IMG/VR virus record: IMGVR_UViG_2718217860_000003
DNA: 35,499 nt
DNA from: a virus
Lineage: Duplodnaviria; Heunggongvirae; Uroviricota; Caudoviricetes
Reading direction: 5' to 3' (one strand)
How positions within the stretch are numbered: the stretch's first letter is position 1; each line of letters starts with the position of its first letter. Below, piece by piece: positions 1,641 to 32,481 of this stretch. Made by a program: the position numbers and the translations under genes. The notes beneath the pieces were generated by a model. It saw nothing but the letters and a program-made list of their open reading frames with translations. It was not told where the DNA came from and searched no databases.

Positions 1641-4148
1641 TTAAGAATCAGCCTGACTCGGGATCAGTTTTTGCCAGATAACTGAAACGTATTTTGCCTG
1701 GTAACGGGCGTCATCAAGTGCATTATGGCGCTCACCTTCGAATGGAATAGCCGTTCTGGCATCGAAGTCTATGGCTTTCCCCAGCTCAACGATTGTGCGT
1801 ACATCGCGATCGTTGTAGTAACGCCACGGGCAGGGGATCCCCTGCCGTTCGTATGAACGGCGCAAAATCGTGTTGTCGAAGTTGGCTCCATTTCCCCAAA
1901 CCTGAACAAAAAATTCACCGGAGTTTTCGTCGATAAATTCTCGCAATTGTAACAGTGCATCATCTAACGGGATTTCATCGGTCATAATGGCAGATTGCGC
2001 TTCGCGTGATTGCTTAAGCCACCATTTAATGGTGTCCCGATCAATGACTCCGCCAGCAGTTTCCAGATCGATAGTCTTACTAAATTCCGGTCCCATATCT
2101 CCGGTTTGCGGATCGAAAAATATTGCACCTATTGAGATGATCGGGGCATCAGGATTTTTTCCCATGGTTTCAAGGTCGATCATTAGATGGTCACACGTCC
2201 TGCTGGTGGATGTGATTCCGTGATGACCGTTCACCTTAATTGGGTGATCTGCCGTCTCGCCAGTTTCATTATCGCTATTGTGATGCTGATTGCCGCCAGT
2301 GTTCTCCTTGTGTGGATGTTCAGCGCCTTCCATTTCCTCCGGATCATCTTCCTGAACTTCAACCTGATACTCTTCATCGAATGTTTCTTGGTATGTTGCG
2401 TCGCCCATCACCGCGCCACAATCAGGGCAGTTGCCGCCGCCGGTCTGACCGCAGGCGGTGCAGACTTTTTCCACTTCCTGTTGCGCTACTGGTTCAGGCT
2501 GTTTCGTTTCTGGCTCGTTTTGTAACGCATTTGGACTGTTTTGTTCCGCTTTTTGGTAGTTCCGTTCCGATTCATGCTGGTTCTGGTTCACAGAATCGCG
2601 GGTCTGGAGCCCCTTAACCCATTTCGGATCATTCGGGTCACTAATCCCTTCAACAAATTCACCACGTGATGCAGCAAGCAACTTATCGGCGTCAGGCTGG
2701 CTGATATTGGCTGCCTGCATAATTTTGTTTACTTCGTCAGCGGTAACTTTTATCGGCTCTGGTTGTTCTGAATCTTCAGCGGTATCTACATTTTGCGGTA
2801 AGCCCGTGTATGTGCCATTTTTTCGGGCAAAATATTCTTCTTTTGTGATTTCAGTGGCGCCAGCAGCCAGTGCCTTATCCAGACCAGAGAGTTTGTTTGC
2901 GCGACCGTATTTTTCTCCGTCCTTATCTGCGAAGAGGAAATAGAACGGCCCCTCACGCTCTACAGATGGTTCAGCTTCCGGCGCGGTTTCATTTTTTGGG
3001 ATATCAGATACCTCAGTTTCCACTGCATCAGTTTGTGTTTCTGATGACTGGAGAACATCAACAGTGCCCAGGTCTGTTTCTTCATTCTCAAACACGCCCT
3101 TTGTCGTCAGGTATTCGCAGATATATTTGTTCAGTGCTACGGGATCTTTGTGAATGTCGATCGGACGCTCACGGACAAGGCCAAAAATAGTTTGGCGGTC
3201 GTAGCGAAGGGCATCAGGCTGTTTGCGCATTGATGCCGAGATACGCTTCCAGTCTTCGCGGTCGTTGTCGATAACTTCTTTTTTTGCCCAGCGATGGATG
3301 CTGCCGTCAATGTTTCCGGCATCCACATCACCAGGCCAGAGAGCGTAGGCCAGTTCGTCATCCAGTGTTTTCCATGTCTGCTTGTATTCGCGATGAATGG
3401 CAGCAATGACCGGGCTGATTTTTCCTGTTGAATTTTCAGTGTACTGTTGATTGGCTCTGGCGCGGGCGAGATCAACAACAGACGTGTATTTTCCGGTTTC
3501 CTTGCGTTCACCTTCGCGACGTTTTTTCCAGATGCGCATCTCTGCCTGAATTTCGGGCCATTTAGCACCAGGAATACATTTATGCTTAACCCACCCAATG
3601 GCGTGCAACTTAAGCTCCGGATACATGGCGTTAACTTCTGGCATTTTCATCAACGCTTCAACGATATGTCCGTCGAATGTTGCCATGTCTTCCTGCAACA
3701 ATTCCTGTGCGCTAATAACCATATCAACGGTGATGTTTTCACATGTGTCGAACTTAACCATGACAGCGTTCTGTACTTCAGGGGCCAGCTTGTCAAAAGT
3801 GACGTTCATCGGATCGGATTCAGTCTCAACCGGGACAAAAGAAGCAGACTCCTCATCCCAGCGGTTTTCCTGCATATATTCAGCATCCCATGAATCGAGG
3901 GCAGGGCGGGGTATGCCAGGTTTATCCTCGCAGACAATAAATTTATAAGCGCAGTCCTGAGCAGCCGGATAATGTTCCAGGAATTGCCAGTGAAATTTTG
4001 CTCGAGCACGGCGTTCGTCGCCAGCTTCAATGGCTGTGGCTACAGCCACAGCGCCTTCTTCCCTTGTTGCCAGTTCGTCAGGAATAGCGGCGCAAATAAA
4101 GACTTTACTCATTTGTTTTAACCTCATGACAGATTTAAGGATGAACAA
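1641..4148 (-). CDS. Large early-region protein with a C-terminal DnaQ-like DEDDh 3'-5' exonuclease domain, a central Cys4 zinc-ribbon-like motif and an acidic low-complexity linker
   Basis: 835-aa ORF. The C-terminus carries Exo I (MIDLETMG), an Exo II-like (GNGANFDNTIL) and Exo III (ERHNALDDARYQ) motif. A Cys cluster CTACGQTGGGNCPDCG lies mid-protein. The more likely start is Met13 at 4112 (MSKVF...) with GAGG 9 nt upstream. Sits in the exo/recE position of lambdoid phages. Confidence 0.8.
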   Translation of the reverse strand: MFILKSVMRLKQMSKVFICAAIPDELATREEGAVAVATAIEAGDERRARAKFHWQFLEHYPAAQDCAYKFIVCEDKPGIPRPALDSWDAEYMQENRWDEESASFVPVETESDPMNVTFDKLAPEVQNAVMVKFDTCENITVDMVISAQELLQEDMATFDGHIVEALMKMPEVNAMYPELKLHAIGWVKHKCIPGAKWPEIQAEMRIWKKRREGERKETGKYTSVVDLARARANQQYTENSTGKISPVIAAIHREYKQTWKTLDDELAYALWPGDVDAGNIDGSIHRWAKKEVIDNDREDWKRISASMRKQPDALRYDRQTIFGLVRERPIDIHKDPVALNKYICEYLTTKGVFENEETDLGTVDVLQSSETQTDAVETEVSDIPKNETAPEAEPSVEREGPFYFLFADKDGEKYGRANKLSGLDKALAAGATEITKEEYFARKNGTYTGLPQNVDTAEDSEQPEPIKVTADEVNKIMQAANISQPDADKLLAASRGEFVEGISDPNDPKWVKGLQTRDSVNQNQHESERNYQKAEQNSPNALQNEPETKQPEPVAQQEVEKVCTACGQTGGGNCPDCGAVMGDATYQETFDEEYQVEVQEDDPEEMEGAEHPHKENTGGNQHHNSDNETGETADHPIKVNGHHGITSTSRTCDHLMIDLETMGKNPDAPIISIGAIFFDPQTGDMGPEFSKTIDLETAGGVIDRDTIKWWLKQSREAQSAIMTDEIPLDDALLQLREFIDENSGEFFVQVWGNGANFDNTILRRSYERQGIPCPWRYYNDRDVRTIVELGKAIDFDARTAIPFEGERHNALDDARYQAKYVSVIWQKLIPSQADS

Positions 4149-4204: not shown

Positions 4205-4396
4205 TTAAAGACCTGCCGGGATTTCGATATTATCCTGGTGAATAACTTTATCGACCGGGTAACAGTTACCGGGAATTTTCTGTTCGGTTGCTGCAGTCAT
4301 ACACTCCTGCATTGTCCTGTGAACACTGACTGCAATATCAACTGGCTCTCCGGAAACAAGAAAAACTGTCAGAACAAGCACAAATGCTGAATTCAT
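4205..4396 (-). CDS. ydfD: YdfD-like small protein (Qin prophage lysis-inducing protein family), N-terminal hydrophobic segment
   Basis: 63-aa product MNSAFVLVLTVFLVSGEPVD... from the internal Met of the 81-aa ORF; its start overlaps the dicB stop as ATGA (translational coupling). Matches the YdfD sequence as recalled. Confidence 0.75.
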   Translation of the reverse strand: MNSAFVLVLTVFLVSGEPVDIAVSVHRTMQECMTAATEQKIPGNCYPVDKVIHQDNIEIPAGL

Positions 4397-4581
4397 TGTG
4401 CACATCCTTTTGGCATCAGACGTAAACGAGCCAGCATTGAAACAATGCATATTTTATTTAATAGCTCCCGTTCTTGTTTTCTCTTGTTAATGGCATCTTC
4501 AGTAAATACTGGGTTACTGATAGTGACACCAATTTCAAAACAACCTTCAGACGTATTAACGTTTGGTAATAACGTTTTCAT
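4393..4581 (-). CDS. dicB: Cell-division inhibitor DicB
   Basis: 62-aa product MKTLLPNVNTSEGCFEIGVTISNPVFTEDAINKRKQERELLNKICIVSMLARLRLMPKGCAQ from the internal Met of the 97-aa ORF; matches DicB as recalled; directly downstream of dicF. Confidence 0.85.
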   Translation of the reverse strand: MKTLLPNVNTSEGCFEIGVTISNPVFTEDAINKRKQERELLNKICIVSMLARLRLMPKGCAQ

Positions 4582-4750
4582 TATCGCGTCCTCAACAATG
4601 AATTTTGTGATGCAGTGCCTGGTGCCTCCAGGTGACGTTAACCAGTTAACAATTAACGCCGGATACAGAGAATCCACCCATAACACTGTTTTTGGTTTTA
4701 ACTGTTCCGCGTGCGCTCAGCCGCATTCACCACATCACAAAATTCACTTT

Positions 4751-4808
4751 AAAAAGGGCGGCAGAGCAGTCACGGAGTAAAACTGATACCGCCAAACGTC
4801 ACCAGAAA
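4751..4808 (-). ncRNA. dicF: DicF small RNA (ftsZ-targeting antisense sRNA) with its intrinsic terminator
   Basis: The minus strand reads UUUCUGGUGACGUUUGGCGGUAUCAGUUUUACUCCGUGACUGCUCUGCCGCCCUUUUU, a GGCGG...CCGCC hairpin followed by a U-run, lying between ydfC and dicB as in the Qin dicB operon. Ends are approximate. Confidence 0.85.
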
Positions 4809-5148
4809 ATTGATAACAGAGGGCGTTGCAGCGGGGTTGTCACTTAAGCGTATGGTCAACCTGACAACCCGGTGTCCTCAACGGGGAAGGAATAACCCCG
4901 CCATACTTACCGCCGCGCCATTTCGCGGGTTGCCACAACCGGAAGCGCACGGTCGACGAAAATTTAACGACAGGCTATCTATGAACCAGCTACCTCGCCG
5001 TGCGCTTTCGCGTTATGGTCTGACTTTTCAGGGAAATATCCTTTCAGTAAACTGTCAGTTCCGGATGCGCACCCGTGTCCGGCGCACGCACTCCACCTCA
5101 CCCGTGGAGAACTCCTTAATTACTAACCTTAGCTTTGTTGATTAGCTA

Positions 5149-5367
5149 CTAACGCGGGTATGTAATCATTCTGGCAATGCTTAATGCCGCTGCTTTTTCC
5201 AGATTGGTGATATCCTGCTCCAGAGCGGACAGATTTTCAGCCTGCTTAGCCCTGGCTTCATTAGCCCATTTCAGATCCTGCGCTGCATTAATTTTCTGGC
5301 GCATCCACTCATAAAGTTCATCATCGGTATAGTCTGGCGCGATGATGACGGGTTCTCGTTTCTGCAT
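5149..5367 (-). CDS. ydfC: YdfC-like prophage protein
   Basis: 72-aa ORF in the conserved position between ydfB and dicF. Confidence 0.7.
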   Translation of the reverse strand: MQKREPVIIAPDYTDDELYEWMRQKINAAQDLKWANEARAKQAENLSALEQDITNLEKAAALSIARMITYPR

Positions 5368-5396
5368 ACTGATTCCTCGCGGTGCTGTTTCGCTTA

Positions 5397-5524
5397 TCAG
5401 CCGTTAGATTTTGCCGAACTGGAAAGCGCCTGTTTAAACTCACTGAAGCTGAGAGCTTCTTCGCCTTCGGCAAGGCCTTCGAAGTATTCTTCGTAAGCCT
5501 TTTCCATGATTGTGTCGAAATCCA
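5397..5524 (-). CDS. ydfB: YdfB-like small acidic protein (42 aa)
   Basis: Not in the ORF track (too short). Manual minus-strand translation from ATG at 5524 gives MDFDTIMEKAYEEYFEGLAEGEEALSFSEFKQALSSSAKSNG*, stopping at 5397-5399. Confidence 0.7.
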
Positions 5525-5526
5525 TA

Positions 5527-5682
5527 TCACTCACCTGAGTTTCTTTCCAGCCAGCGACGGGCACCATTTTCGGTTTTAAACGTTTTGCTTTTGGTATACG
5601 TCATTGCGGTGAACGTGCCGTCCTGGTTTGGAAACACGCCGTACACCAGAGATTCGTTGTTGCCAAGATCGATAGTATCCAT
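5527..5682 (-). CDS. ydfA: YdfA-like small protein (51 aa)
   Basis: Internal Met of the 103-aa ORF gives MDTIDLGNNESLVYGVFPNQDGTFTAMTYTKSKTFKTENGARRWLERNSGE; first gene of the dicB operon, downstream of a DicA-operator-like palindrome. Confidence 0.7.
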   Translation of the reverse strand: MDTIDLGNNESLVYGVFPNQDGTFTAMTYTKSKTFKTENGARRWLERNSGE

Positions 5683-5797
5683 GCTGACCTCATTTCCCCT
5701 TAACGCTGGGGTAGCGGAACTGTTTGCGGAGAACACCGTGCGGTGTGTTGATGGAGGTAATTTAGTTTTCTCATTATTTTTCGTCAAGGTTTTTTGA

Positions 5798-5809
5798 TGA
5801 GAAAACTCA
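5798..5809. promoter_or_regulatory. Operator-like palindrome TGAGAAAACTCA at the ydfA (dicB operon) promoter region
   Basis: Inverted repeat TGAG-AAAA-CTCA between the dicA 3' end and ydfA; a near-identical copy lies in the dicA/dicC divergent region. Confidence 0.5.
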
Positions 5810-5874
5810 AGTGTTGGCGCAAGATAAAGCCAATACATTGAAATGTAAGGCTTTAAAATTTTGTGAAGGGATGA

Positions 5875-6282
5875 TTATTGATGCTTGTTGCGTTTGCGAG
5901 CCTCTAATAGCTCGGTGAACAGGCGATTAAAATTCTCAACGCGGGCGCGGAGTTCGCTGAGTTGTGCTTGTTGCTCTGATTTAGGAAGTGCGCGATACAA
6001 ACGCAGCATCTCTAACTCATCTTCCGATAAGTCTAGGGTACTATCGAGTGAAACAGGGGGAGCTGGTGTTTTGTCCTCGTCGCCAAACAGTATCCAGGTT
6101 GGTGAACATTGCAATACCTCGGCGAGGCGATGCAAATTTTGCCCGCGCGGGGCTGTATGGTCACTTTCCCATAATGAAATTGATGAGCCAGATACGCCAG
6201 CAGCTTTGCTTAAACCGTTTTGACTTAAGCCTACCTGCTTACGTCTTTCTCTAATGCGTTGACCTAAAGTTTTCTCGTTCAT
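5875..6282 (-). CDS. dicA: DicA-like repressor (XRE-family HTH, CI functional analogue)
   Basis: 135-aa product from Met18 (MNEKTLGQRIRERRKQVGLSQNGLSKAAGVS...LQCSPTWILFGDEDK...), closely resembling DicA as recalled; divergent from a dicC-like gene. Confidence 0.85.
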   Translation of the reverse strand: MNEKTLGQRIRERRKQVGLSQNGLSKAAGVSGSSISLWESDHTAPRGQNLHRLAEVLQCSPTWILFGDEDKTPAPPVSLDSTLDLSEDELEMLRLYRALPKSEQQAQLSELRARVENFNRLFTELLEARKRNKHQ

Positions 6283-6332
6283 ATTTAGATATCTTAATAA
6301 TCCTTGACTTGAGATTCCTTGAGTGATTAGCA

Positions 6333-6346
6333 TTGAGAAAACTCAA
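6333..6346. promoter_or_regulatory. Operator-like palindrome TTGAGAAAACTCAA in the dicA/dicC divergent promoter region
   Basis: Perfect inverted repeat 14 nt upstream of the dicC RBS (GGAGG); same core as the site at 5798-5809. Confidence 0.55.
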
Positions 6347-6359
6347 TATTGGAGGTGCG

Positions 6360-6587
6360 ATGTTTAAATCAGACGTAATTAATTTTTACGGTACGAAAGC
6401 CAAAGTAGCGAAAGCTGCTGGCGTTGACCCATCTGCTGTTTCTCAATGGCAAGAGCTAGTTCCTGAAGGTCGCGCGATGCGTCTACAGGAGGCATCTGGC
6501 GGCGAGCTTCTGTATGATCCCAAGGTTTATGACGAATATCGTAAGACGAAGCGGGCGGGGCGGTTGAACAATGAAAATCACTCCTGA
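6360..6587 (+). CDS. dicC: DicC-like Cro-type regulator
   Basis: 75-aa product from the internal ATG (MFKSDVINFYGTKAKVAKAAGV...GRAMRLQEASGGELLYDPKVYDEYRKTKRAGRLNNENHS) with GGAGG upstream; divergent from dicA. Confidence 0.8.
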   Translation: MFKSDVINFYGTKAKVAKAAGVDPSAVSQWQELVPEGRAMRLQEASGGELLYDPKVYDEYRKTKRAGRLNNENHS

Positions 6588-8753: not shown

Positions 8754-9653
8754 ATGATTGATCCACTTATTAGAAACTTACAGAGTGATATTGCACTACT
8801 CCAGCTTTATATCGCGCAACGCAAACAGGCAGGCTTTCATGACATGGAAAGAATAATTGAGTCATTGACCATCTTTATGTTTCGCGCGCTGAAAATGGGT
8901 GAACTGGTAAACATGAATCAGATTAAAGTTAATTTTCCCGCCATTGATTTAGCTGATAATAAAAACATGATAGCAGTTCAAGTTACTACGAATGCAAGTC
9001 CAGCAAAAATTAAAAAAACTATCGAATCTTTTGAGGAAGCAAATGAAATAGGAGAGAGTCTGAAAGATAAATACTCTACTTTATATATTTTTGGTTTTTG
9101 TAAAGCCTCAAGATACCTAACTCCAAGTTATTGTAAAATAATCGACCCCAGCTATTTCGTGAATGAACTTTGCGATAAAGCAGATGAAGATATGGTCCAG
9201 GATATGATTGACGCCATTCGACGCCATCATGATTATACATCATTACATCCATGGAGTGATAAAGATTCACTCGAAATTATACTCAATATTATTAATCGCA
9301 ATGCAATAAAACATCGGATGAGTTGCGAAGGCAGTCTGTCTGATATGCTCACTGGTTTAAAAGAAATTAATGAAGTAATTACAAAAGGAACAATTCAACG
9401 TAAGCAACGTTCAAAATCGATATCTGACTTCAAAGATCAAAGCATGGTGAAATTTATGAGAGGTGTAATGGATGATTTGTCTGTTATTCAAGCCATAGTG
9501 AACAAATCTAAAGTTAACCAAGGTGATATGGTTTATATAAGCCATGAAGATATGATTAATATTGATAAATTAAAAGCTAAAATAGCAAGTGATTCATCAG
9601 AGATTGCAAGGCTAAATAATATTGATATAACACTAAATGTTGTTGATTTATAA
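8754..9653 (+). CDS. Hypothetical protein encoded in an AT-rich accessory island (candidate defence/abortive-infection-type protein)
   Basis: 299-aa ORF in a visibly AT-rich block; no confident family match. Convergent with the membrane protein/methyltransferase operon. Confidence 0.7.
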   Translation: MIDPLIRNLQSDIALLQLYIAQRKQAGFHDMERIIESLTIFMFRALKMGELVNMNQIKVNFPAIDLADNKNMIAVQVTTNASPAKIKKTIESFEEANEIGESLKDKYSTLYIFGFCKASRYLTPSYCKIIDPSYFVNELCDKADEDMVQDMIDAIRRHHDYTSLHPWSDKDSLEIILNIINRNAIKHRMSCEGSLSDMLTGLKEINEVITKGTIQRKQRSKSISDFKDQSMVKFMRGVMDDLSVIQAIVNKSKVNQGDMVYISHEDMINIDKLKAKIASDSSEIARLNNIDITLNVVDL

Positions 9654-9967
9654 TTGTCGATTTAGCAAAACAGAGAATGCTTTGAAAGTTTCACCGAGAA
9701 ATATTTATTGTGAACCTCCTTATTGTTTATCGACTTTTACTCTCCGCTCATTGCAGTACTGTCGGAGAAGGCTACTATGTACAAGAAGCAGCTAACATAA
9801 GCGAGCATCACTATTGATATTAGGAAGAGTATATAAAAACTTCATGCTGAACCTTACAAAAGTAGGTAAACCGGCAATGGCCTAAGTGGCAGGGTCATGT
9901 TGATCCGGCACTGCCGAGCTAATAATTAACAAGCAAATCACTCTTTCTAATAATTTGTTGAAATAAA

Positions 9968-10627
9968 CTAAATATGTATATGTTTACCAACAACCACATA
10001 TGAACTACCTGCTTTGCTCCATGATTTTATTATTTCTAAATTATTATCTGAGCATATTTTACTTACAGTATCCACATCTAATAAACCATAGTAGAAAGCA
10101 TTACGAGAGTTTTGGTATATATACCCATGCAAATGTTTAATACCGCTCTCGTACCTCTTGAAATAAGAACTTTTGTATTGATTGACAATCAGTGCTTCAC
10201 CATCACTCTTTAATAATTCTCTAATCGCACTGAGGACTTTGTGAATTGTGGATTCACATGGAATTGCGGAAAGCACGTTTGCGCAAAGTATGAAATCATA
10301 ATGATTTGTTATTTTATCTATATTTTCATAAGAAACAATATTAGCATTCTTATAGTTATTTATCACGTAATCTGGAATCGTGGTTTGTACACCTCTGATA
10401 ATTTGCACTCTTTCTAGTTGTCTTCTGGAATCTAAAAATGTCACAGTTTCAAATTTATTTACTAATTGTTCTGAATATCTAAGTTTTCCACATCCAAAAT
10501 CAAGGGCATTGCCATTTTTATTAGTGCTTTCAATCTGTTTACAGAGATAGTTAGATGGCATAGTGTGCGGTTTCGCTGCATTTTCTGAACGTATGTTTAT
10601 TCCATTTATTTTGTAATTCAAAATCAA
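9968..10627 (-). CDS. Class I SAM-dependent methyltransferase (not a recognisable DNA methyltransferase)
   Basis: 219-aa ORF with SAM-binding motif I (ALDFGCGKLRYSEQL), an acidic post-I residue (VTFLDSRRQ) and a motif II-like segment (DFILCANVLSAIP). No DPPY/NPPY or PCQ motifs. Confidence 0.75.
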   Translation of the reverse strand: MILNYKINGINIRSENAAKPHTMPSNYLCKQIESTNKNGNALDFGCGKLRYSEQLVNKFETVTFLDSRRQLERVQIIRGVQTTIPDYVINNYKNANIVSYENIDKITNHYDFILCANVLSAIPCESTIHKVLSAIRELLKSDGEALIVNQYKSSYFKRYESGIKHLHGYIYQNSRNAFYYGLLDVDTVSKICSDNNLEIIKSWSKAGSSYVVVGKHIHI

Positions 10628-10633
10628 CCTCGT

Positions 10634-11341
10634 TTAAAAAATATTGTTATTGTTAAAGAATTCTTTTATTTTGCTATCAGGTATTTGTCTTACTTGGCTT
10701 TCTGTTCTTGGTTTAACTGATGCTATGAAAATAAGGAAGTCAAATGCGACAAGAGAAATAATCCACAACCAAAGATTAATTAAAGAGCCAGTAACAGAGA
10801 ATATATTTGTTAATTTGGCGATACTTATTATTAAAATAGTAACAAATGCGATTACTGTATGTTCAAAGAAAACCCAAAAGTAATAAACTTTGTTCCAGAA
10901 AAGTTCAACGTAATGTTTGTCTTTTAACTCTTTAACTTCTGGGTAATACAGTTTACTCATTACCTTGTGAGATTCATCAGTAGTTAATTTTCTCGTAACG
11001 CCTGCAATTTTTGCTAATGGTTTAATAATTAAATGACTATCCCACATCTTCCTTATTCCAATAATTTTTGCTACATTATTATGTAGATCTAAAGCTCCAC
11101 TAATTACTGACCAAAAAACTGAAGATGCAATTGGTAATATGCCAAAGGTTAATATCCATTTAATAAATTCCTCGTAGTCTTTAACGGGGGGGATATACTT
11201 GGCATTAATGCCAACCAATGGCATGTAGCCATAAATGACTAATGATAGGTAAAATATAAATGTAGTAATAAAAGTCGCCTTATGGAGCATAGGCAACATT
11301 TCATTATAACTCTTTGGTGGTTCTAACATTTTACTCTCCAA
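10634..11341 (-). CDS. Integral membrane protein (about 4 predicted TM helices), function unknown; forms an operon with the downstream methyltransferase
   Basis: 235-aa ORF with several long hydrophobic stretches; its stop lies 6 bp from the methyltransferase start on the same strand. Confidence 0.7.
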   Translation of the reverse strand: MESKMLEPPKSYNEMLPMLHKATFITTFIFYLSLVIYGYMPLVGINAKYIPPVKDYEEFIKWILTFGILPIASSVFWSVISGALDLHNNVAKIIGIRKMWDSHLIIKPLAKIAGVTRKLTTDESHKVMSKLYYPEVKELKDKHYVELFWNKVYYFWVFFEHTVIAFVTILIISIAKLTNIFSVTGSLINLWLWIISLVAFDFLIFIASVKPRTESQVRQIPDSKIKEFFNNNNIF

Positions 11342-12014
11342 ACATTCAAAAAAAAGCTAATCTTCTATAATAACGAAATTCAGCTGGCACAATTAAAGAT
11401 TAATTGCCACCAATTTCTTGATTTTATAATTTTATCTAAATGTTTTTGATTAATCTAGTCCTAAAAGAAACCTACTGCATAAATATTTATGCTGATGACC
11501 CACTCCCTGTTCGTTAACACATAGCAACGTTAGTAATGCATCCTAAGTGATCAATATTTTTGCTAGCTTCATCTGCTCGCTCAAAGGGAACTATAATGTT
11601 GGCTTGCGTGTGACTTGGCATGTTTAAAGAAGTGCTGGTGGTGACTGGTTGCTGTTTTCCATTTCCACAGAACAAAATCATAGAAACTATACCCAGTAGT
11701 TGTATTGAATCACTGACGAGACAGCCTCATATTTATCAGGACTGGTGTACGTCCAATACAGGAGGTTGTGGTGCTGGTTCTCAAATGTGCGCTGGCTATT
11801 GCTGCTGTAATGGCAATTTATTGTCTTGCTGTTGTTCTTATGGATCACCTTTCTGATTGATTTCATATTGGCGAGGTAACGGTAGTTAAGTAGAATTGCT
11901 GCGGGTGCTTGAGGCTATCTGCCTCGGGCATCAACACCAAAGGCAGATAGAGAAAAGCCCCAGTTAACATTACGCGTCCGGCAAGACGCTTAACATTAAT
12001 CTGAGGCCATATCT

Positions 12015-12227
12015 ATGCTCTACACACGTAGGTTAGCCTCTTACGTGCCGAAAGGCAAGGAGAAGCAGGCTATGAAGCAGCAAAAGGCGATGCTAATCGC
12101 CCTGATCGTCATCTGTTTAACCGTCATAGTGACGGCACTGGTAACGAGGAAAGACCTCTGCGAGGTACGAATCCGAACCGGTCAGACGGAGGTCGCTGTC
12201 TTCACAGCTTACGAACCTGAGGAGTAA
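12015..12227 (+). CDS. Mok-like leader ORF in frame with hokD (N-terminally extended reading frame)
   Basis: The track ORF starts 19 codons upstream of the Hok Met in the same frame. Confidence 0.35.
   Translation: MLYTRRLASYVPKGKEKQAMKQQKAMLIALIVICLTVIVTALVTRKDLCEVRIRTGQTEVAVFTAYEPEE
12072..12227 (+). CDS. hokD: Hok/Gef-family type I toxin (HokD/RelF-like)
   Basis: 51-aa product MKQQKAMLIALIVICLTVIVTALVTRKDLCEVRIRTGQTEVAVFTAYEPEE with AAGGAG RBS; single TM helix and conserved Hok C-terminus. Confidence 0.9.
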   Translation: MKQQKAMLIALIVICLTVIVTALVTRKDLCEVRIRTGQTEVAVFTAYEPEE

Positions 12228-12322: not shown

Positions 12323-12443
12323 ATTTTCAACGCGTTTGAAGTTCTGGACGGTGCCGGAATAGAATCAAAAATACTTAAGTAGCGCGCAGGGATAAGAGGG
12401 ATGGTCCCTTAAAGGGGAGAGCTAATTATCCGGAAGGATTCTG

Positions 12444-12695
12444 ATGATGAACATCGAAGAACTGCGTAAAATTTTTTGTGAAGATGGCCTCTATGCTGTG
12501 TGCGTTGAAAATGGAAATATTGTTAGTCATTACCGCATTGTGTGTTTGCAAAAAAATGGGGCTGCGTTAATTAATTTTGTGGATGCCCGAGTGACGGACG
12601 GATTTATCTTGCGCGACGGTGAGTTTGTCACTTCATTACAGGCATTGAAAGAGATCGGAATAAAAGCTGGCTTTTCTGCTTTTTCAGAAGAATAA
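12444..12695 (+). CDS. rem: Rem-like prophage protein
   Basis: 83-aa ORF MMNIEELRKIF... adjacent to hokD, as in the Qin prophage. Confidence 0.65.
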   Translation: MMNIEELRKIFCEDGLYAVCVENGNIVSHYRIVCLQKNGAALINFVDARVTDGFILRDGEFVTSLQALKEIGIKAGFSAFSEE

Positions 12696-15439: not shown

Positions 15440-15515
15440 GGTCCTTTAGCTCAGTGGTGAGAGCGAGCGACTCATAATCGCCAGGTCGCTGGTTCAAATC
15501 CAGCAAGGGCCACCA
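15440..15515 (+). tRNA. tRNA with CAU anticodon (ileX/ileZ-type tRNA-Ile2 if lysidine-modified; reads as Met by anticodon alone)
   Basis: Cloverleaf: acceptor GGTCCTT/AAGGGCC, D-arm GCTCAGTGGTGAGAGC, anticodon loop CTCATAA, T-arm GGTTCAAATCC, 3' ACCA. One A-C mismatch at the base of the anticodon stem. Confidence 0.8.
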
Positions 15516-15621: not shown

Positions 15622-15698
15622 GCGTTGTTAGCTCAGCCGGACAGAGCAATTGCCTTCTAAGCAATCGGTCACTGGTTCGAATCCAGTACAGCGCGCCA
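15622..15698 (+). tRNA. tRNA-Arg (UCU anticodon)
   Basis: Acceptor GCGTTGT/ACAGCGC, D-arm AGCTCAGCCGGACAGAGC, anticodon loop CTTCTAA, T-arm GGTTCGAATCC, 3' GCCA. Confidence 0.8.
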
Positions 15699-16162: not shown

Positions 16163-16695
16163 ATACATATCTGGATTATCACCTGTTACGGTAAAAAGTG
16201 ATTGCTTACTGTTTTTGTGAATGGCATTGCAGCAGCCGGATAATGTCAGTGCTGGCTGACGGTGTGCTGGTGGCGGGTGTGGTGGTTGTTGCTTTCCCGT
16301 TGCTGAAAAAGAAAACGCCAGACTGTTAGCCGGGTATCAGTTAGCGGGAGAAATTTTTAAATACTTCACAATTCAGGCGGTTGACTGTTCTCTGGTTTGC
16401 GGGGAGTTTGTTAAAAGAAACTGGCATGGTGAATCCCCCTGTGCGGAGGGGCAATCAGCGAGTAGGCATATGGGATAATCGCGGATTCAGGTGCTGGTAC
16501 TGAATTCACCGGGAGGCACCCGGCACCATGCACTTCAATAGATTCTCTCCACATTATGGATATTCTTTCAGAATATCCCACGCAGACTTTGTGTAAATGT
16601 TAACAAATGTGCGTTTTATTTGATCTGATTCGCTGTTTGAGCGTCCAAAACAACGGTATATATAATCCTTTACTATATGACATATGTGAGGAAAA

Positions 16696-31900: not shown

Positions 31901-32481
31901 TGGCATTCAGAATGAGTGAACAACCACGGACCATAAAAATTTATAATCTGCTGGCCGGAACTAATGAATTTATTGGTGAAGGTGACGCATATATTCCGCC
32001 TCATACAGGTCTGCCAGCAAACAGTACCGATATTGCACCGCCAGATATTCCTGCTGGCTTTGTGGCTGTTTTCAACAGTGATGAGGCATCGTGGCATCTC
32101 GTTGAAGATCATCGGGGAAAAACCGTCTATGACGTGGCTTCCGGCGACGCGTTATTTATTTCTGAACTTGGCTCGTTACCGGAAAATGTCACCTGGTTAT
32201 CGCCGGAAGGGGAATATCAGAAGTGGAACGGCACAGCCTGGGTGAAGGATACGGAAGCAGAAAAACTGTTCCGGATCCGGGAGGCGGAAGAAACAAAAAA
32301 CAACCTGATGCAGGTAGCCAGTGAGCATATTGCGCCGCTTCAGGATGCTGCAGATCTGGAAATTGCAACGGAGGAAGAAATCTCGTTGCTGGAAGCCTGG
32401 AAGAAGTATCGGGTGTTGCTGAACCGTGTTAATACAACAACTGCACCGGATATTGAATGGCCAGTAGCACCTATAGGGTAA
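31900..32481 (+). CDS. tfa: Tail fibre assembly protein Tfa
   Basis: 193-aa ORF; start overlaps the stf stop (TAATG); conserved Tfa C-terminus ...[31 protein letters not shown]. Confidence 0.9.

Follow-up and report, generated by a model that had tools for sequence, protein, structure and literature searches.

Near-identical palindromes lie on both sides of the dicA-like repressor gene in the window (the whole 35,499-nt stretch of prophage DNA analysed here), and these are, at a probability that we put at roughly 85% from sequence comparison, the cognate operators of the DicA-like repressor of a Qin/mEp460-type prophage at both of its early promoters. A first-pass annotation of the same DNA had proposed that a single DicA-type repressor serves both promoters, and this is supported by promoter position, the architecture of the K-12 locus, covariation with the recognition helix, confinement of the sites to an exchanged cassette, and conservation. 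The model itself is already published: the window carries the known dicA/dicC/dicBp circuit in the usual layout of lambdoid phages, here in a variant predicted to be heteroimmune (mEp460 type), and the known model is left unchanged. The operator motif of this immunity type was not found in the searchable literature.

The immunity locus and its genomic setting

The window is a Qin-like prophage of Escherichia coli that matches strain CFSAN064035 at 100% identity over the query, and the region is carried by 797 of 5426 complete genomes. The dicA-like and dicC-like genes are divergently transcribed with 77 bp between them, and the dicB operon lies on the other side of dicA.

5875-6282, minus strand: dicA-like repressor gene (135 aa)
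6360-6587, plus strand: gene for a dicC-like Cro protein (75 aa)
4205-5682, minus strand: the regulated operon, with ydfA (5682-5527), ydfB (5525-5397), ydfC (5367-5149), DicF RNA (4807-4756), dicB (4581-4393) and ydfD (4396-4205)

The repressor is 57% identical to K-12 DicA and of the same length. It carries an N-terminal HTH_3 domain (Pfam), and its residues 1-72 are homologous to the DNA-binding domain of P22 C2 (E = 8e-16, PDB 1adr and 2r1j). Pfam matches of the 135-aa protein are to helix-turn-helix families only, with none to a peptidase family such as S24; K-12 DicA has been reported to be without an Ala-Gly bond (PMC10448788). The dicC-like protein belongs to Pfam family P22_Cro and is 70% identical to K-12 DicC, the differences being concentrated in the N-terminal helix-turn-helix. 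The proteins of the operon are all identical to their K-12 counterparts, and DicF RNA was identified by Rfam (76.7 bits).

Several further features of the prophage were recorded. The plus strand also encodes a YdaT-family gene. Downstream of ydfD lies an intact ORF of 835 aa whose C-terminus resembles an exonuclease (1641-4148, minus strand). In K-12 this place is taken by ydfE, a pseudogene disrupted by IS2, and in mEp460 the annotation of the corresponding gene is exodeoxyribonuclease. Other Rfam matches are a sok antitoxin RNA (11903-12077), which adjoins a hok-like ORF at 12015-12227, two tRNAs (15440-15512 and 15622-15695), the sRNA STnc100 (16395-16585) and IS009 RNA (32243-32441). Between the replication genes and hok/sok, at 8754-11341, are a plus-strand ORF of 299 aa and two minus-strand ORFs of 219 and 235 aa; the three could be a moron or defence insert.

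Operator-like palindromes

The first-pass annotation had described two palindromes flanking dicA, and both were read directly from the window at the positions given, TTGAGAAAACTCAA at 6333-6346 and TGAGAAAACTCA at 5798-5809. That description holds for these two sites but had overlooked a third copy (5760-5775), the full 16-bp extent, a related palindrome at 6283-6298 and a half-site at 6308-6313. The exact word common to the two regions is the 13-nt TGAGAAAACTCAA, at 5798-5810 and 6334-6346. With up to one mismatch allowed, the 12-mer occurs three times in the 35.5-kb window, at 5762-5773 (minus strand, one mismatch), 5798-5809 and 6334-6345, all within the two regulatory regions and at promoters; 0.12 matches are expected by chance, and none of 100 shuffles reached three. 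A search for further copies with up to three mismatches gave 16 matches against 18 expected, with nothing above chance outside 5760-6347. The full site is the 6-4-6 palindrome ATTGAG-AAAA-CTCAAT, and the following candidates were distinguished.

6332-6347: candidate OR1/Oc-equivalent operator, the perfect 16-bp palindrome ATTGAGAAAACTCAAT (ATTGAG-AAAA-CTCAAT)
5796-5811: candidate OL2-like operator, GATGAGAAAACTCAAG, adjoining the ydfA/dicB-operon promoter on the upstream side of its -35 (the second site of the first-pass annotation)
5760-5775: candidate OL1-like operator, ATTTAGTTTTCTCATT, with the A-tract in the opposite orientation, spanning the spacer and -10 of the ydfA/dicB-operon promoter
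6283-6298: OR3/Oa-like palindrome, ATTTAGATATCTTAAT (ATTTAG-ATAT-CTTAAT), with two mismatches, a symmetric G-to-T change in both half-sites
6308-6323: possible weak OR2-like site, CTTGAGATTCCTTGAG, of which the left half-site only matches (CTTGAG, 6308-6313)

The dicA-dicC spacer thus holds three motif-like centres, at 6290.5, 6315.5 and 6339.5 (25 and 24 bp apart), one belonging to a perfect palindrome, one to a palindrome with two mismatches and the middle one to a half-site only. The middle site is centred 24 bp from OR1 and adjoins the dicC -35, and a half-site (T/C)TGAG is retained at its position in the Buttiauxella loci; its function as an operator is uncertain. The palindrome at 6283-6298 lies directly beside the dicA ATG and shares bases with TAAGAT, a -10-like element for dicA. 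It is invariant across all window-type loci, and other immunity types have a palindrome of their own dialect at the same place. It may be an OR3-like autoregulatory site or a target of DicC, and its conservation may be due, in part or wholly, to the overlap with the dicA -10 and start.

A fifth element, GAGAAAACT at 6268-6276, was rejected as a site: it lies within the dicA codons N-E-K-T and is not conserved in relatives (loci L006, L007 and L008), and is therefore taken to be coincidental.

Predicted promoters and neighbouring elements

A consensus scan placed a promoter beside each group of sites.

6304-6333, plus strand: predicted dicC promoter, -35 TTGACT (6304-6309), 18-nt spacer, -10 TAGCAT (6328-6333)
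5759-5787, minus strand: predicted ydfA/dicB-operon promoter (dicBp equivalent), -35 TTGACG (5787-5782), 17-nt spacer, -10 TAAATT (5764-5759)
5825-5855, minus strand: stable hairpin (dG -11.3 kcal/mol, z -3.5) immediately past the dicA stop codon, with UUUAUCUU after it

Both promoters are consensus predictions only, two having been found against 1.5 expected in the region. Relatives retain TTGAC and TAnnAT of the predicted dicC promoter, and the equivalent K-12 promoter has been mapped by 5'RACE (PMC3441716). On the leftward side, the TTGAC between the two operators is conserved in all immunity types. The 6332-6347 palindrome shares 2 nt with the end of the predicted dicC -10 and also overlaps the expected start of transcription; its position is that of the tested K-12 operator Oc. 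The OL1-like and OL2-like sites, 36 bp apart centre to centre, bracket the leftward -35; repression of the ydfA promoter is probably exerted mainly from the -10-proximal site at 5760-5775, whose K-12 counterpart carries TGTTAGTCATGGCTAATC. A role of the palindromes as RNA hairpins was ruled out by position, one lying upstream of a -35 and one spanning the expected start.

No Shine-Dalgarno sequence precedes the dicA ATG (6282, minus strand), and the -10-like TAAGAT lies 8 nt upstream of it, which suggests, from the sequence, a leaderless, PRM-like dicA mRNA. In other immunity types TAGCAT or TAGAAT occupies this -10-like position; in K-12, no consensus dicA promoter was found by Yun et al. (PMC3441716). 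The hairpin at 5825-5855 probably terminates dicA transcription, shielding the ydfA promoter from read-through, and the block is conserved in the within-type alignment.

Two observations concern RNA structure in relatives and in the ydfA leader. At the terminator position of Buttiauxella L006, a hairpin with different stem bases is apparently retained, as judged by eye. Taken in full, the ydfA leader folds no better than shuffled sequences (z = -0.46); a small hairpin in its 5' part, CACCG-UG-CGGUG at 5734-5745, lies just past the predicted start and is identical in K-12, and in Buttiauxella it is replaced by another, AATCACT-CAGC-AGTGATT.

Exchange of the immunity cassette relative to K-12 Qin

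Global alignment of the window with K-12 Qin in 30-bp bins delimits a short block of divergence.

5750-6460: swapped immunity cassette, about 710 bp; identity to K-12 Qin is mostly about 55% within it and 93-100% per 30-bp bin in the flanks

Its left boundary lies near the expected start point of the ydfA promoter and its right boundary inside dicC, just after the helix-turn-helix. The cassette takes in dicA, the helix-turn-helix half of dicC and all of the operator-like sites. A cassette with the repressor genes and all of the sites fits the classical definition of a lambdoid immunity region, and its exchange predicts that the prophage of the window and K-12 Qin are heteroimmune, as does knowledge of the operator, ATTGAG-N4-CTCAAT. 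The two form a natural pair of repressor/operator specificities for studying specificity change in P22 C2-type helix-turn-helix proteins, and knowledge of the operator allows targeted reporters for dicBF induction in clinical strains and phage mEp460.

The regulatory logic of the K-12 locus is known from experiment. K-12 DicA represses dicC and binds in vivo the 20-bp inverted repeat Oc, TTGTTAGTCATAACTAACAA, which overlaps the dicC -10 and in which one base change abolishes binding; DicA is also required for its own transcription, and the additional sites predicted from sequence, Om and Oa, did not bind DicA on their own (PMC3441716). At dicBp, repression by DicA is 22-fold and is relieved by Rem (PMC10448788). 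Both K-12 intergenic regions have been described as having lambda-like operators, according to the account of Bejar et al. 1988 given in PMC10448788. In the K-12 sequence, Oc adjoins the dicC -10, and the dicBp -35, TTGACC, lies between a pair of Oc-like sites spaced by 35 bp. The Oc sequence is not found at the homologous position of the window, where ATTGAGAAAACTCAAT stands instead.

Covariation with the recognition helix and conservation among relatives

Thirteen DicA relatives from other genomes, with 44-99% identity, were grouped by recognition helix, and in every group the same palindrome, particular to that group, was found on both sides of dicA.

Helix VS[GD]SSISLWE (window, L002-L007): ATTGAG-N4-CTCAAT
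Helix ISHVSVSQWE (K-12, L009-L011): TTGTTAGT-N4-ACTAACAA
Helix V[AS]HVTISQWE (L012-L014): TTGTTAGA...TAACAA
Helix [RK]SSVSVFKWE (L015, L016): TAAC-TTTT-GTTA

Within the window group, upstream and downstream regions match at 13-14 of 14 positions, as against at most 12 with other groups and a shuffle mean of 10.7. The 14-nt-window matrix separated the window-type and L015/L016 groups and was noisy for the AT-rich K-12-like types. A palindrome-aware scan chose non-operator palindromes in 4 of 11 loci, and the seven with a dicC-proximal pick were relied on; in these the dicC-proximal site ends 47-50 bp from the dicA ATG, and in most of them a pair of cognate sites, spaced by 34-36 bp, lies downstream of dicA.

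These palindromes might instead be operators of the Cro-like DicC only, with DicA acting elsewhere or indirectly. The helix-turn-helix half of dicC shares the swapped cassette, so covariation alone cannot separate DicA from DicC, and K-12 DicC has ChIP-seq sites, with a palindromic motif, on both sides of dicA. However, it is DicA that binds Oc in vivo in K-12, with single-base specificity (PMC3441716), and deletion of K-12 dicA derepresses dicBp 22-fold while deletion of dicC is without effect (PMC10448788, PMC3441716). The 6-4-6 geometry, moreover, agrees with the P22 C2-type domain of DicA, and exclusive use of the sites by DicC is considered unlikely. Since CI and Cro share operators in lambdoid phages, binding of the palindromes by both DicA and DicC is the expected state, and it is as operators of DicA that they are treated below.

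Conservation within the immunity type was examined in 80 viral contigs (96-100% protein identity) together with L002-L007, which yielded 22 distinct dicA-dicC and 47 distinct dicA-ydfA spacers. The viral-contig scan returned only near-identical relatives (96-100%), and hence within-type variation and no new immunity types. In the three 12-bp cores, 31 of 36 columns are invariant, compared with 60 of 155 other non-coding columns (Fisher p = 2e-7, phylogenetic non-independence being ignored). The palindrome at 6332-6347 is nearly invariant among the 22 distinct homologous sequences, and the core of 5796-5811 is conserved inside variable flanks. In the Buttiauxella loci, where DicA is 73-76% identical, the flanks are unalignable but the cores are retained, together with the -35 TTGAC and the -10 TAnnAT.

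This pattern bears on whether all three sites are functional. Only 6332-6347 and 5760-5775 might be, with 5798-5809 either a duplicate without function or an A/T-rich element that serves the ydfA promoter in the manner of an UP element. The latter site is upstream of the -35, at a place from which bound repressor would not necessarily block RNA polymerase, its neighbouring sequence is A/T-rich, and the auxiliary sites of K-12 did not bind DicA alone (PMC3441716). Against this, its 12-bp core is an exact duplicate of the core of the strongest site and is as conserved as the other two while both flanks vary, even in Buttiauxella. A second cognate site also recurs 34-36 bp upstream of the -10-proximal one in most loci with a dicC-proximal pick, which points to selection on a two-site arrangement. 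We thus regard a dispensable upstream copy as quite improbable, and continue with three candidate operators for DicA.

Least credible is that the repeats bind no phage repressor and are coincidental, mark past recombination at mosaic joints, or are recognised by a host factor of fixed specificity (such as YjdC, a reported regulator of DicA targets): although lambdoid mosaic joints often carry short shared sequences, the sites here are internal to the cassette and away from its joints, three matches stand against the 0.12 expected, the sites are conserved while their flanks diverge, and the palindrome differs in every immunity type, tracking the recognition helix encoded by the phage, a pattern for which a host factor of fixed specificity cannot account.

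Proposed mechanism

By analogy with P22, a dimer of the DicA-like repressor would bind each 18-bp site, contacting the two ATTGAG half-sites across the 4-bp A-tract centre. The overlap of 6332-6347 with the dicC -10 and start point implies that repressor bound there would occlude both and shut off the transcript of the Cro-like dicC; stimulation of dicA may be a further effect, by analogy with K-12. Repressor at 5760-5775 and 5796-5811 would bracket the -35 of the leftward promoter and exclude RNA polymerase, silencing ydfA-ydfB-ydfC-dicF-dicB-ydfD. The two leftward sites, 36 bp or about 3.4 helical turns apart, are not on one face of the DNA, and cooperativity between them is therefore uncertain. 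Since Om and Oa of K-12 fail to bind DicA alone, functional sites may also be fewer than motif matches. DicC, being Cro-like, probably binds the same sites, which would give a bistable switch, and relief of repression probably proceeds through the antirepressor Rem and not through RecA-mediated cleavage.

The window-type repressor has Ala44 and Arg46 (codons at about 6145-6153, minus strand) where P22 C2 has Glu44/Asn46 and K-12 DicA has Glu44/Thr46. At the operator centre, AAAA/TTTT does not vary in any of the three sites, Buttiauxella included, and Arg46 may read the minor groove of this A-tract.

Rem and the probable route of induction

A homologue of the antirepressor gene is present in the same prophage, preceded by a good sigma-70-like promoter, TTGAAG-N18-TAGAAT, at about 12337-12366.

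12444-12695, plus strand: rem homologue, 94% identical to K-12 Rem

Because the repressor is without a match to a self-cleavage (peptidase) family, RecA-mediated self-cleavage is not expected and Rem is the likely route of induction. A search for LexA boxes upstream of rem or in the immunity region gave none that was convincing (13 matches against 10.6 expected).

The phages mEp460 and HannyBb pair a window-type DicA with a Rem that is 92.8% identical. Together with the 94% identity of Rem and the 57% identity of DicA between the window and K-12, this pairing suggests that one Rem may act on heteroimmune DicA variants. If one Rem does serve both, a single signal would cross-induce heteroimmune Qin- and mEp460-type prophages that share a cell. 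Two proposals may be put forward, tentatively and with more doubt than confidence: one Rem, 92.8-94% conserved, would inactivate DicA proteins of different DNA specificity (57% identical) via a conserved linker or C-terminal part, and the window-type repressor would read the invariant AAAA directly, through Arg46 in the minor groove, where P22 C2 (Asn46/Glu44) reads its centre only indirectly.

Comparison with known systems

The likeness to Gifsy-type prophages lies in a short repressor that is uncleaved by RecA and a small antirepressor as the likely inducer (as discussed in PMC10448788); unlike in the Gifsy type, no LexA box was found near the rem of the window.

Two temperate phages, mEp460_ev081 (LR597641) and HannyBb (PP925841), carry the same cassette with 98.8% DNA identity over 751 bp and share the immunity type, dicB and the 92.8% identical Rem. 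These are deposited phage genomes, whereas the window is a chromosomal prophage. Operators are not annotated in either record; homologues of dicAC, dicBF and rem have been reported in mEp460 by Ragunathan et al. (PMC10448788).

The locus also has the features of a P22-type switch, namely divergent repressor and cro-like genes, a domain homologous to that of P22 C2 (1adr, 2r1j, 3jxb) at the N-terminus of the repressor, a partner in the P22_Cro family, and the same palindrome at the rightward and leftward predicted promoters. The sequence C-ATTGAG-AAAA-CTCAAT-A of the window fits the 18-bp P22 frame exactly (6-4-6), and against the P22 consensus, ATTTAAG-N4-CTTAAAT, its half-site shows about one base of difference. 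In its own site, P22 repressor makes contact at positions 2-7 and 12-17, reads the uncontacted positions 8-11 indirectly and prefers ApA/ApT centres (PMC4267663); the three window cores have an A-tract at this centre. The differences are that the window repressor is without a peptidase-family match, that it has G32, S33, L37, A44 and R46 in place of N32, V33, Q37, E44 and N46 of P22, and that its leftward promoter has two bracketing sites where P22 has an adjacent triplet.

A close counterpart is the cryptic prophage Qin of K-12 (Bejar et al. 1986/1988 as cited in PMC10448788; Yun et al. 2012, PMC3441716; Ragunathan et al. 2023, PMC10448788), from which the window differs in its operator (ATTGAG-AAAA-CTCAAT, against TTGTTAGT-CATA-ACTAACAA in K-12), in DicA and DicC (57% and 70% identical) and in the recognition helices. 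Gene order, identical dicB-operon proteins, a 135-aa repressor without a peptidase match and the presence of Rem are common to both, as are an operator at the dicC -10, two operators 35-36 bp apart around the ydfA/dicB -35 and a palindrome beside the dicA ATG. As in K-12, a DicA orthologue stands beside dicC and upstream of ydfABC-dicF-dicB-ydfD, with candidate operators at the corresponding positions and Rem in the same prophage.
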